The notes: generated by a model not told the origin, from the sequence alone. A stretch of DNA of 64,000 nucleotides from Euryarchaeota archaeon UBA557 (GCA_002503285.1 DARI01000009.1:9049-73048), one strand, 5' to 3'. Positions 11,249 to 14,608 are shown, counted from the first letter of the stretch. A program made the numbers and translations.

Positions 11249-11800
11249 TTAATAAATTTCTTTTATTAATTTATGAATTTTATATGGTAGTAAAGCCCTA
11301 TTTACAGGTGTTACTTCCAAAATCCTCCCATCATCGCGTCTTCTGATGTCCTGGAGTAAAGGGTGCCTGCTCTTTTTATGTAATGTCAATAGCGTAGGCA
11401 TATCATATTCTAGAGCTGTTCTGACCGCTGCAACAAAACCTTCACTTTCAACTGAAAACTTACCAACTTCATCAATCACTAAAATCTCACAGTTACCTAT
11501 ACTATCCAATATAGCAGGAACAGCAACTCTGTCAAGTTCTGTAGGATCAATTCCGAACCCCAAAATCCTCAATCTTGAATCTATATTTCTGTGTGCCATT
11601 ATTCCTTTTTCACCTGTTTGAATATTAACACATGCATAACCAACTCTTTCTCCATTTTCTATTATTGGCTCAGTCTTTATTCCTCCAATCATTTTATCCG
11701 CTGAAAATCCACTTCTTGTTCCTGAATTGCCATTTTTTCTTTCTTCAATAATCATATTGATTACTTTCTCGAGAACGGCTGACTTGCCAGATCTTGGCAA
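11249..11800 (-). CDS. THEP1-like nucleoside-triphosphatase (P-loop NTPase); true start probably upstream at a non-canonical codon
   Basis: 'GLPRSGKSAVLEKV' Walker A and 'LVIDEVGKF' Walker B. The called TTG start cuts into the P-loop strand 'KIGITG', which is encoded in frame just upstream (see finding). Confidence 0.75.
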   Translation of the reverse strand: MPRSGKSAVLEKVINMIIEERKNGNSGTRSGFSADKMIGGIKTEPIIENGERVGYACVNIQTGEKGIMAHRNIDSRLRILGFGIDPTELDRVAVPAILDSIGNCEILVIDEVGKFSVESEGFVAAVRTALEYDMPTLLTLHKKSRHPLLQDIRRRDDGRILEVTPVNRALLPYKIHKLIKEIY

Positions 11801-11963
11801 ACCAGTTATTCCAATTTTTGGATTTATTCCTATAATATCACCTCAATGGTCGCTTAGCCACAGCGCTACCAATAGGGGCACATACTGCAAAGGTATTAAT
11901 CAGTTTCATTAAAATATTATAATTACTGTCACAGACCGGAATTTAAAATCGGTTCTTAGGAAA

Positions 11964-14006
11964 TCAAACATCCCTTTTATTGCCCTTAAACGATAATGAG
12001 GAAACAATTTTTGGAGTAGGAAATGGTAAACCAGCAATTTCATAATTATTTACATTATTATTTGCAGCCCAAACTTTTGACCATGTATTCAGAGATTCTG
12101 AATTTAGATGATTTACTATCGTATTCAAACCTTCATGTAAGGATCCAAATTCTTCTTTGAGGACGTTACAGGTTTCTTTAGGAATCTGCAAATAATTTAC
12201 AGAATTACCAAGAACACAATTTCTAGGAACAACGCTCCATAATAAACGTCTCTTTAGCCCTGAATTGACTACAGCCTGACACGCAATCCTAGGAATTTCA
12301 TTATTTTTAACATCTCCTACCCACATTGATTGATGTGCTTGCATTGATTCTTGATCATAATTGTCATCAAATGCAGGATGATCAATTATCACTTTATTAC
12401 CATCTAATTTAAAATGATTACTTCTAATCAACGGTACTCCTGTATTTTCAAATTGCCAATTAATGATATTAAAATTATTACTTTGATCAATTTCTCCAAC
12501 CCTTACTCTGATACTCTTTCCACTTTGATTTAACCAGCAATCTTCTTCACAAAGTCTAGGTTGATCAGCAAGATCGTTAATTGCTTTCAAAGATAAATTT
12601 CTTTCATATGTGTCTCTAGGCATCTTAGGAACAGCCCATGACGCATCAGTCCATGTTGACCAAGGACCTCTTTCAAGTTCTAGGAACGGAGCTTTGGAAC
12701 TAAGTCCATTATTAGATAGATCACTCAATTCTAGGGGACCAAAACTAGTCAAAACCTCTGTCCTTCCTCCAACAATTACTCCGATTACTAGGACTCCTTG
12801 AGAAATTCCTGGGAAGATTTTTTGACTATCTGAAAACGACCATGCAGATTCCCAACGATTTTTAGAAACAAGTATTTTTCTCAAAGGTATACTACTTTTT
12901 TCTCTGAGTAAGGAATCAGGCACAACCATTGTTACTTTACCATCTTTTTTTGTTATTTGGAGTGCACGTTCCACATATAATCGATATAAGTTGACATTTC
13001 CTTTTAGGGCTGAAAATCGAAGCACTCCATCTTTTCCAGAAATAACCTTTAATTCATTAGACATTTTTTTACGTAGTTCACTACCATTTTCTTCATTACG
13101 AAATTTATCCTTTATCCTAACCCATGGGGGCTTAGAAACTAATAATATTGGCTCATCATTCCACGGCCACTCGCCTCTTAGCAAGTCATCACAAACAACA
13201 TTCTTTTCTAAAATATTTTCAGCCATTGATCTACTTATTTGACCATCAGTTTCTATGTCGGGACTAACTAATCCAAGTTTGATTAAAACTATTAGTAATC
13301 GTTTTCTAGTTATTTTGACGGACATCATGGATGAATCCATTAATTGTAATCCATTTAGAAGCCTCTTGGTATCTTCTTTTTGTTGCTTTTGATTCAAATC
13401 TTCGCACCTTTCAGAGTGAATTCTAAACATTCTTTCTGGAAATATTCCAGCACCCACAGCTGGATCTGCAAATGGAATTGGAATTCCAGTTTTAGTTTCA
13501 TTTTCGCTGACCTCATAGGTCTCTGATGAGATATCAGATTCTTTCTTCACCTCATTATTCATTTGTTCAGCATATGCACGAAATCCGGGAGGCAATGCAT
13601 CGAGAGAAATCGTTGCCAATGGTTCTTTTTTCTTTAATTTATTAGTATTTTTAAATTCATCTGCTAATATCATATCAGCAAATTTGGCAGGCATTATCGT
13701 AACTCCTTTTACTGACCTACCATCTTTTTCTGCCTCATTTCTAGAAACTAACTGGTCTAATACTATGCCTGGATCAGATATTAATCCTGCAGGGAGACCC
13801 GGCCAATTATTAGGAAGCCCAGTAGAAATCGGCACGTCATCTATTACTGATTTTTCCCAAGCTTCAATCCAAATCCCAATTTGTTGGTCTCTATCTTGAC
13901 ATGTCCCGTCTAGCCTAGCAAACCATCCAGAAGTCTCATTAACCATGATAAACAATAAGTCTAACTGTATTATGGCTTTGAAGGATTGTATTCTATAATC
14001 ATTCAA
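11964..14006 (-). CDS. Eco57I-like gamma-class N6-adenine methyltransferase-like protein with a C-terminal specificity-like region
   Basis: Motif I 'FADPAVGAGIF' (nt 13440-13466). Motif IV-like 'LLVSKPPWVRIK' (SKPPW at nt 13122-13136). 'NLYRLYVERALQITKKDGKVTMVVPDSLL' block. Confidence 0.7.
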   Translation of the reverse strand: MNDYRIQSFKAIIQLDLLFIMVNETSGWFARLDGTCQDRDQQIGIWIEAWEKSVIDDVPISTGLPNNWPGLPAGLISDPGIVLDQLVSRNEAEKDGRSVKGVTIMPAKFADMILADEFKNTNKLKKKEPLATISLDALPPGFRAYAEQMNNEVKKESDISSETYEVSENETKTGIPIPFADPAVGAGIFPERMFRIHSERCEDLNQKQQKEDTKRLLNGLQLMDSSMMSVKITRKRLLIVLIKLGLVSPDIETDGQISRSMAENILEKNVVCDDLLRGEWPWNDEPILLVSKPPWVRIKDKFRNEENGSELRKKMSNELKVISGKDGVLRFSALKGNVNLYRLYVERALQITKKDGKVTMVVPDSLLREKSSIPLRKILVSKNRWESAWSFSDSQKIFPGISQGVLVIGVIVGGRTEVLTSFGPLELSDLSNNGLSSKAPFLELERGPWSTWTDASWAVPKMPRDTYERNLSLKAINDLADQPRLCEEDCWLNQSGKSIRVRVGEIDQSNNFNIINWQFENTGVPLIRSNHFKLDGNKVIIDHPAFDDNYDQESMQAHQSMWVGDVKNNEIPRIACQAVVNSGLKRRLLWSVVPRNCVLGNSVNYLQIPKETCNVLKEEFGSLHEGLNTIVNHLNSESLNTWSKVWAANNNVNNYEIAGLPFPTPKIVSSLSFKGNKRDV

Positions 14007-14608
14007 TTTTCAAGTCCAAATATATCTTGATCGATTTCTATTATCATTTTTTTCTGAAGTAAAATAGAAATAGCCTCATCTATTTCTTCCTCTTTAATTG
14101 CAAGTGGAATAAATTGTTTTAATAATTGTTTAAAGTGAATAACCATTTTCCCAGATGATTTTTCATTTTCCATAAATGCCATGATGTGTTCAGCAACTAT
14201 TGCAAGTAAAGGATCATCATCAAAATCTAATGCTCCAAAATCAACCATCGGTTCTCTATGTTGATCTTCTGTATTTTGTTCTACAACATCAGTCGTTTCA
14301 TAAACATCAAATAAATTCCGTTGGTTGGGGTCTGATAGAACAATATTATCGGCAACCTCGCGCTGTCTCTTCAGCCTTTTTACCAAAGTTTCAATCCTAT
14401 GAAGCCTCTGTTCTAGTCGCAACCTCTCTCTTCCTAGATGGCTTTCTACTAATTCTAATTCTTCTCCTGCCCTTTCATCAAGCCAATTTGATAAATCCCA
14501 GTTAGGATCTAATCGCAACATAGTTTCCCAAAGTCTAGCTACAGAATCTGGAAGGGCATTAGCATCAATCCGAGAAACATCTTTTTCATCGCGCGCTTCT
14601 TTCTCCAT
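14003..14608 (-). CDS. hypothetical acidic coiled-coil protein (possible C-terminal winged helix)
   Basis: 'RERLRLEQRLHRIETLVKRLKRQRE' heptad-like stretch. Its stop overlaps the downstream MTase-like TTG start (TTGA). Confidence 0.55.
   Translation of the reverse strand: MEKEARDEKDVSRIDANALPDSVARLWETMLRLDPNWDLSNWLDERAGEELELVESHLGRERLRLEQRLHRIETLVKRLKRQREVADNIVLSDPNQRNLFDVYETTDVVEQNTEDQHREPMVDFGALDFDDDPLLAIVAEHIMAFMENEKSSGKMVIHFKQLLKQFIPLAIKEEEIDEAISILLQKKMIIEIDQDIFGLEN

Follow-up and report, generated by a model that had tools for sequence, protein, structure and literature searches.

A lysine in place of the catalytic asparagine marks an orphan DNA methyltransferase homologue of Marine Group II archaea as a probable pseudo-enzyme

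Gene model and architecture of the methyltransferase homologue

The window analysed here is a 64,000-nucleotide stretch of DNA from Euryarchaeota archaeon UBA557. Its minus strand carries a 680-codon open reading frame (ORF) at 11964-14006 that opens with TTG and encodes a homologue of DNA methyltransferases (MTases); a 201-codon ORF lies directly upstream at 14003-14608. A sequence-only reading of this DNA had remarked on a lysine in the catalytic tetrapeptide of the homologue and had proposed that it is coupled to the 201-aa protein. The observation is confirmed, the interpretation is partly supported, and the homologue is most likely a conserved pseudo-enzyme. Related proteins (650-690 aa, 43-96% identical) come from sources named Candidatus Thalassarchaeaceae, Poseidoniia or Thermoplasmatota, that is, from Marine Group II archaea (Poseidoniales). 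We coded the genera of this order as g1-g22 and its families as f1-f3; the window belongs to genus g1 of family f1.

The overlap reported earlier between the TTG at 14006 and the TGA of the upstream 201-aa gene exists, but the start that was placed there probably does not hold. Met21 of the 680-aa reading is invariant in 18 diverse homologues and is the start residue of most of them, which makes the ATG at 13946 the likely start. The gene would then probably span 11964..13946 (minus strand) and encode 660 aa, a model that draws on the ORF, the conserved Met, the Pfam Eco57I match, AlphaFold and Foldseek; residue numbers throughout refer to this 660-aa protein. A start at this ATG leaves a 56-nucleotide spacer after the 201-aa gene, and the TTGA overlap probably goes unused. 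By the same comparison of starts, the 20 codons of the in-frame extension to the TTG (13947..14006, minus strand) are probably untranslated spacer. Inside this extension lie ATAATA, at positions -27 to -22 of the methylase ATG, and a conserved element, CCTTCAAAG (13976-13984, minus strand). In the form C[CA]TTCAAA[GCA], the element recurs 26-33 nucleotides 5' of the methylase ATG in both families, whatever the upstream gene (window 13976-13984 and loci L003, L006-L012, L017, L018, L021, L023 and L026), and it is not enriched in the whole window, with 10 matches against 7.5 expected. It points to a promoter or operator of the methylase gene's own, putatively a gene-specific promoter or an autoregulatory operator.

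From its N terminus, the homologue comprises a helical domain, motif X, a family-specific insertion of ~45 aa, a Rossmann MTase domain and a target-recognition domain (TRD; 12012..12746, minus strand, like all features of the gene below). Motifs X, I, II, III and IV, then the TRD, follow in the order of a gamma-class N6-adenine MTase. Pfam Eco57I (PF07669) matches residues 331-398 with 38.3 bits against a gathering score of 25.3. The NCBIfam model of Alw26I/Eco31I/Esp3I methylases, TIGR02987, scores 83.7 bits against a cut-off of 353.5, mainly over the C-terminal TRD (residues 504-667), and PADLOC returns generic type II methylase models only. Foldseek comparison of the AlphaFold model (predicted local distance difference test score, pLDDT, 88; predicted template modelling score, pTM, 0.85) places CamA first (9e-18), then BseCI (1e-14), PglX/BrxX and TaqI (1e-12). 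CamA is likewise the top match in a profile comparison with PDB sequences (8e-34). The model superposes on CamA, M.BseCI and M.TaqI over ~570-630 columns, nearly its full length, so the C-terminal TRD is real; TIGR02987, the alignment and Foldseek all relate it to the TRDs of Alw26I/Eco31I/Esp3I methylases. The family proper amounts to two full-length clusters in the representative library, and a profile search of 1.8 billion representative proteins finds TIGR02987-type methylases as its nearest relatives outside the order (E 1e-29). On these matches, the homologue derives from Alw26I/Eco31I/Esp3I-type methylases.

The individual motifs are a mixture of intact and degenerate elements. Motif I, for S-adenosylmethionine (AdoMet) binding, reads FADPAVGAGIF (13440..13472). 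The predicted AdoMet site has its conserved residues (D161, G165, G167, D204 and D254); the family shows essentially no variation at D161 and G167, and Asp204, the ribose-binding acidic residue of motif II, is retained (13335..13337). Motif X (13689..13706) is degenerate, reading GVTIMP where G-x-[FY]-Y-T-P is canonical, with Thr at the equivalent of CamA Tyr30 and Met at the conserved Thr. Phe378, the motif VIII aromatic and equivalent of CamA Phe253 (12813..12815), is retained in the window. Position 564 (12255..12257), in a TRD beta-hairpin loop according to the model, is Leu. The gamma-class motif order with an Eco57I block and the TaqI-like C-terminal TRD proposed from the sequence are thus both borne out by Pfam score, motif order and modelled fold. 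The ~180 N-terminal residues had been described as free of recognisable motifs; motif X and the ~45-aa insertion lie there.

Replacement of the catalytic asparagine by arginine and lysine

Motif IV of the window protein reads KPPW (K272-W275; 13122..13133), which departs from the catalytic tetrapeptide (D/N/S)PP(Y/F/W). In an alignment with 37 distant canonical relatives, all of which have NPP[YWF], Lys272 falls on their Asn. Motifs X, I, II and III and the block NLYRL...VVPDS after motif IV are in register around it; the KPPW is therefore real, and the by-eye alignment behind the original observation was not shifted. A literature search found no MTase with a (K/R)PP(W/Y/F) motif.

To place the replacement phylogenetically, we retrieved the gene from every species genome that contains the greater part of it, 116 in total, and examined the key alignment columns. 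NPPW occurs in 78 genomes, covering all sampled f3 genera except g22 as well as the f1 genera g2, g3, g6, g8, g10 and g11, and DPPW in one genome, from g22. RPPW is found in 34 genomes (g4, g7, g9 and g13) and KPPW in three, all from the window's genus; one metagenomic sequence has His at position 272. A canonical residue in homologues had been named in advance as a sign of misalignment. N or D does stand at this position in other genera, yet the census and the alignment identify a true lineage-specific substitution and not a shifted alignment.

In an IQ-TREE phylogeny rooted on the canonical relatives, the R/K/H sequences form one clade with a Shimodaira-Hasegawa-like approximate likelihood ratio (SH-aLRT) support of 98, and K is nested in R. 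This genome-sampled tree replaced an earlier FastTree of the 120 nearest homologues, in which N-type sequences were under-sampled and the base was unresolved. A single R/K/H clade with K inside R means that the ancestral Asn was replaced once, by Arg, in the ancestor of five small-genome genera. Lys came later, when Arg changed in the window's genus by a single step from AGR to AAR.

Constraint on the active site after the replacement

We set 34 N/D-type sequences against 111 of R/K/H type and then drew the same contrast in the 116-genome census. In CamA, Tyr30, Phe253 and the motif IV aromatic form a cage for the flipped adenine, and Asn165 hydrogen-bonds that adenine (PMC8187626); the N165A variant has served in vivo as a catalytic-site mutant (bioRxiv 10.1101/398891). 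Positions 83 and 378 of the homologue align to CamA Tyr30 and Phe253 in the profile alignment. The aromatic residue at position 83 has become Thr, Ser or Gly in the K clade, Phe378 has become Leu or Pro in the sister genus g9, and Thr85 of motif X has become Pro in g9 and Met in g1. All 78 N/D-type genomes have Gln564, and so do 13 of 19 canonical outgroup proteins; none of 36 R/K-type genomes does, the position there being L, K, S, N, D, A, V or M. Variation at the four pocket positions (Q564, F378, T85 and Y83) is confined to the R/K clade.

The rest of the protein is under a different regime. D161, G167, D204, D254, PPW and the TRD blocks are essentially invariant in both the N/D and the R/K group. 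Within genera, the ratio of nonsynonymous to synonymous substitution rates (dN/dS) is 0.054-0.093 in R/K genera, against 0.04-0.06 in N genera of the same family and 0.02-0.04 in those of the other family; for a K-type pair, the window protein and that of a congener, it is 0.08 in the MTase domain. Position 272 itself remains restricted: six different Arg codons are used across the clade, which argues that Arg itself is selected, and Lys and His are the sole replacements seen. The gene has been kept in 37/37 genomes of the five R/K genera versus 80/114 elsewhere (Fisher p = 2e-5, uncorrected for phylogeny). Motif II Asp204 is lost only in one g4 sub-lineage (G075, G111 and G129; loci L066, L063 and L068), where it is Gly, MDSS having become MGFS in an intact ORF. 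This loss fits further active-site decay, as might be expected of a role that does not need catalysis. In summary, the lineage combines two features of a pseudo-enzyme, a catalytic residue lost under purifying selection and pocket residues that appear released from it.

Distribution and genomic context

Of the order's 151 species genomes, 117 have the methylase gene, always as a single copy, and its hits are free of internal stops except for one TGA in G065. Outside the order, 170 genomes of the rest of the phylum gave only short motif-block matches (E of at least 3e-8). The locus runs from an isocitrate/isopropylmalate-type dehydrogenase on the opposite strand through the 201-aa gene, the methylase, a nucleoside triphosphatase (NTPase) and a small ORF to GcvH and RNase H. 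As had been read from the sequence, the next gene on the same strand is a THEP1-type NTPase (11249..11800, minus strand; Pfam NTPase_1 3.2e-32), which stays in place where the methylase has been deleted. The NTPase ORF as listed starts inside its P-loop (MPRSGKS), and upstream in-frame codons (window 11800-11845, minus strand) would complete the strand and the P-loop.

The methylase is cleanly missing from the same locus in g5, g12, g19 and g14 (loci L028, L029, L030 and L031). It appears to have been removed independently several times from one syntenic slot, and in g5 the 201-aa gene now abuts the NTPase. In the gene tree, which was not compared with a species tree, each sampled genus forms its own clade and family f3 a single clade. 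A fixed syntenic locus and a single copy across the order stand in place of the patchy distribution of a horizontally transferred gene, which we did not see. In agreement with the earlier remark that no restriction endonuclease is recognisable nearby, the neighbours are housekeeping genes, and neither the window nor any sampled locus has a nuclease or defence gene at this position; the search was confined to the locus, and a genome-wide nuclease search was not done. The methylase is a restriction-free, vertically inherited orphan gene of Marine Group II, losable from a fixed housekeeping locus, and it was already a vertically inherited, single-copy orphan in the Marine Group II ancestor. The orphan MTase role, one of those first proposed, therefore suits the family as a whole.

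The upstream 201-aa protein

The 201-aa protein (14003..14608, minus strand) is acidic, with a pI of 4.6 and 46 D+E against 26 K+R. Its model shows a short helix, a 49-residue helix, a disordered acidic linker and a C-terminal winged helix (14012..14212, minus strand), much as the sequence-only reading had anticipated. The best structural match of the winged helix is Pyrococcus abyssi Rpa2 (9f2a_C in Foldseek: template modelling score 0.92 on the target, root-mean-square deviation 1.1 A, 28% identity, E only 3.7e-3). Pfam, NCBIfam and PADLOC give no significant family match for the protein; the family has weak Pfam RPA_C and MCM4_WHD matches, RPA_C reaching 0.0069 in one of 15 members. The linker contains QRNLFDVY (14300..14323, minus strand), an instance of the consensus Q-x-N-[LI]-F-[DE]-x-[FY], which is strictly conserved in all three families of the order and resembles a PCNA-interacting peptide (PIP) box. 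The 201-aa protein may be a putative replisome-associated adaptor.

Its gene follows a distribution of its own. It is found in 147/151 genomes and all 22 genera, including g5, g12, g14 and g19 with their confirmed methylase deletions, and is not detectable outside the order in the rest of the phylum. It abuts the methylase only in g1, g4, g6, g7, g9 and g13. Between the two genes lie 3.5-5 kb in g8 and in the other family, an interval annotated at the g8 and g15 loci and occupied by unknown ORFs, a sugar nucleotidyltransferase, a UDP-glucose dehydrogenase-like gene and two TerB-like genes; the distance is 15 kb in g11, and the two genes are on different contigs in g2 and g10. N-type lineages have two ~145-aa ORFs directly upstream of the methylase (L013:4754-5637, L012:6956-7818), both TerB-like at the g8 locus, as is the one scanned at the g15 locus. 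The sugar nucleotidyltransferase and the UDP-glucose dehydrogenase-like gene precede this pair, and all are deleted in the window's clade. On this distribution, the 201-aa protein is a separate order-wide core gene, and the adjacency is a by-product of a lineage-specific deletion of ~4-5 kb of intervening genes.

A probable DNA-binding protein without methyl transfer

Because the pocket has drifted and the AdoMet site, PPW and TRD have been retained, a DNA-binding role without methyl transfer is the most likely one. We propose, with a probability of roughly 0.58, that the homologue is a catalytically disabled, sequence-specific DNA-binding protein that probably still binds AdoMet. The hydrogen bond by which the target amino group holds the flipped adenine in position could not be accepted by a protonated Lys or Arg, and the positive charge of such a side chain beside the AdoMet sulfonium would abolish or cripple N6-methyl transfer; this chemistry follows the established mechanism of (D/N/S)PP(Y/F/W) amino-methyltransferases. 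The adenine-cage residues and one TRD loop residue would then have been freed from constraint, in the R/K clade only, and the AdoMet-binding acidic residues, the PPW turn and the TRD would have been kept under strong purifying selection. The clade would keep the protein for DNA binding, as a regulator or a mark-free 'reader', with AdoMet or S-adenosylhomocysteine (AdoHcy) as probable ligand. Selection would act on the basic residue itself, which may plug the empty adenine pocket or contact a DNA phosphate. The inactivated enzyme that was among the roles first listed is thus a good candidate for the R/K lineage.

Several points weigh against this proposal. The loss of activity is deduced from chemistry and a pattern of constraint, and the strict conservation of the AdoMet residues and PPW is also compatible with continued methyl transfer. 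A selected basic residue could mean a new substrate and not a plug. Since the change from N to R was a single event, the co-loss of Q564 may count as one correlated event; variation at site 564 continued after its loss in the R/K clade.

A still active N6-adenine DNA MTase, relying for its essential chemistry on the Trp and on the backbone carbonyl of the first Pro, with a Lys or Arg that is either tolerated in the active site or deprotonated there, seems unlikely to us. Such an enzyme would account for the intact AdoMet residues, PPW, motif VIII Phe (in the window) and TRD, for dN/dS below 0.1 and for a gene lost in 0/37 R/K genomes. It is hard to reconcile with the Asn of all 37 distant relatives and the N or D of the 79 orthologues that have kept Q564, with cage residues and Q564 that drift only where the Asn is lost, and with an R-type sub-lineage without the motif II Asp; the lack of any (K/R)PP(W/Y/F) MTase in the literature search also speaks against it. 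Mutating this very Asn is, moreover, the standard way to kill such enzymes (CamA N165A, bioRxiv 10.1101/398891). An MTase retargeted to another acceptor that suits a basic residue (a base atom, an anionic group, RNA or protein) by new chemistry is distinctly unlikely. The limited set at position 272 (R in 34 genomes, K in 3, H in one metagenomic sequence), with its synonymous codon turnover, does indicate a new constraint there, and the AdoMet site is conserved. However, no new invariant residues appear near the pocket, whose residues become variable instead, the TRD is still that of a DNA methylase, and the motif II Asp is gone in one sub-lineage. A non-DNA MTase, also suggested at first, was rejected, as the TRD shares ancestry with those of type IIS DNA methylases and the top structural matches are DNA methylases in complex with DNA.

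We regard as improbable a two-gene module with the 201-aa protein, for instance one in which its winged helix recruits a DNA-binding pseudo-enzyme to the replisome. The genes are adjacent and co-oriented in six genera (g1, g4, g6, g7, g9 and g13), the 201-aa protein has a PIP-like motif, and its winged helix is similar to the domain through which Rpa2 docks primase and PolD. Yet the 201-aa gene persists in four genera without the methylase, elsewhere unrelated genes or contig boundaries intervene (mostly 3.5-15 kb or different contigs), and the adjacency extends to the N-type genus g6. Translational overlap would need the unlikely TTG start, and the methylase keeps its own conserved upstream element. 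The coupling, and with it the small modification-based module of the sequence-only reading, is therefore not supported. That the gene is a remnant of a restriction-modification (R-M) or other defence system (type IIS/IIG, BREX-like or MADS-like) is very improbable. Descent from a type IIS methylase family and weak PADLOC and NCBIfam matches to PglX and MAD2 could be read that way. These model matches (E 0.02-0.15; PADLOC PglX, 0.024) are limited to the shared motif block, the BREX PglX and MADS MAD2 models scoring 9.8 bits (NF033452) and 12.8 bits (NF047738) against cut-offs of 500 and 720 over ~50 residues only. A housekeeping locus fixed across the order, in single copy, with no neighbouring nuclease or defence gene and no patchiness, is not what such a remnant would leave.

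Tentatively, the Arg/Lys could also mark a gain: the only DNA MTase of an entire clade of abundant marine archaea would have turned into an AdoMet-sensing, sequence-specific DNA-binding regulator or a new-acceptor enzyme, with a basic residue selected to occupy or re-purpose the adenine pocket. If so, the amino-methyltransferase superfamily would gain its first natural (R/K)PPW class. The window's genome (85% complete) yielded no Dam-type, beta-class N4/N6 or C5 DNA methylase, and its HsdM-type match is below the cut-off (18 vs 20.4 bits). If the homologue is indeed a DNA-binding protein without methyl transfer, DNA methylation may be all but absent from the window's genus.

Few planktonic archaea are as abundant as those of Marine Group II, and to our knowledge no member of the group is in culture, which is why its conserved lineage-specific genes are poorly understood. 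Here a single orthologous gene offers a natural experiment, with sister lineages that have an intact site, a basic replacement or no gene at all. It makes testable both the role of an order-wide archaeal orphan methylase and the retention of a DNA MTase scaffold for a non-catalytic job without an active partner. The name 'Eco57I restriction-modification methylase domain-containing protein', which one public record gives to a family member, is misleading here, and assignments of methylome motifs to genes in R/K genomes should not presume activity.

Comparison with known systems and published methylomes

Marine methylome studies describe N6-methyladenine (m6A) at GATC in most archaeal bins and other motifs sporadically (PMC8919816; PMC9516812), and they assign no motif to the methylase gene. 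The family is a possible source of the GATC m6A in archaeal metagenome-assembled genomes; a beta-class methylase is an equally good candidate. Dam-type genes are sporadic in the order. The conserved beta-class N6/N4 methylase (~320 aa; PF01555, E ~1e-50; for example G003:C1:378608-379270) occurs in the majority of genomes sampled from one family, as well as in g2, g3, g11 and g14; the genomes sampled from the window's genus lack it, as do most small-genome genera. GATC or CGCG methylation has been reported in Marine Group II bins, and this enzyme is a candidate source of it.

Among characterised enzymes, CamA of Clostridioides difficile (PDB 7LNI, 7LT5) is the best structural and profile match. 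Like the homologue, it is a monomeric gamma-class MTase with a TRD, its cage residues align, and it is an orphan with taxon-wide conservation and no nuclease partner. CamA differs in having NPPY and being active on CAAAAA; the archaeal homologue has KPPW and a partly eroded cage, shares only ~12-13% identity with it, and has an extra N-terminal helical domain and the 45-aa insertion. The Alw26I/Eco31I/Esp3I family (TIGR02987) shares motifs X to VIII and the TRD blocks RIACQ...N...RRL and LNS...NNNVNNYE. Its relatives, however, score 165-340 bits on the model (84 here; cut-off 353.5) and all have NPP[YWF], and its characterised members work in R-M systems, whereas the window protein is a chromosomal orphan whose catalytic site looks dead. 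M.TaqI and M.BseCI, for which DNA complexes have been solved, have the same two-domain fold and motif order; they are NPPY enzymes of R-M systems, shorter and without the N-terminal domain.

For the 201-aa protein, the closest parallel is the winged helix of P. abyssi Rpa2, which docks primase and PolD. It is the top Foldseek match of the C-terminal domain (PDB 9F2A, 9F26), although the N-terminal part of the 201-aa protein is a coiled coil and not an oligonucleotide/oligosaccharide-binding (OB) fold, and no sequence-family membership was found.

The closest functional analogy for the methylase homologue may lie outside the prokaryotes. The same combination proposed for the window protein, a lost catalytic motif in a fold under purifying selection that is kept for binding, is seen in METTL14 (EPPL) and DNMT3L, dead MTase paralogues retained as binding subunits. 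Both are eukaryotic, belong to other MTase classes and partner an active paralogue. Unlike them, the window protein has no active paralogue found in its genome, and its replacement is basic and conserved. If the Arg/Lys does mark a gain, the homologue would be a prokaryotic counterpart of METTL14/DNMT3L-type pseudo-enzymes that works without an active partner.

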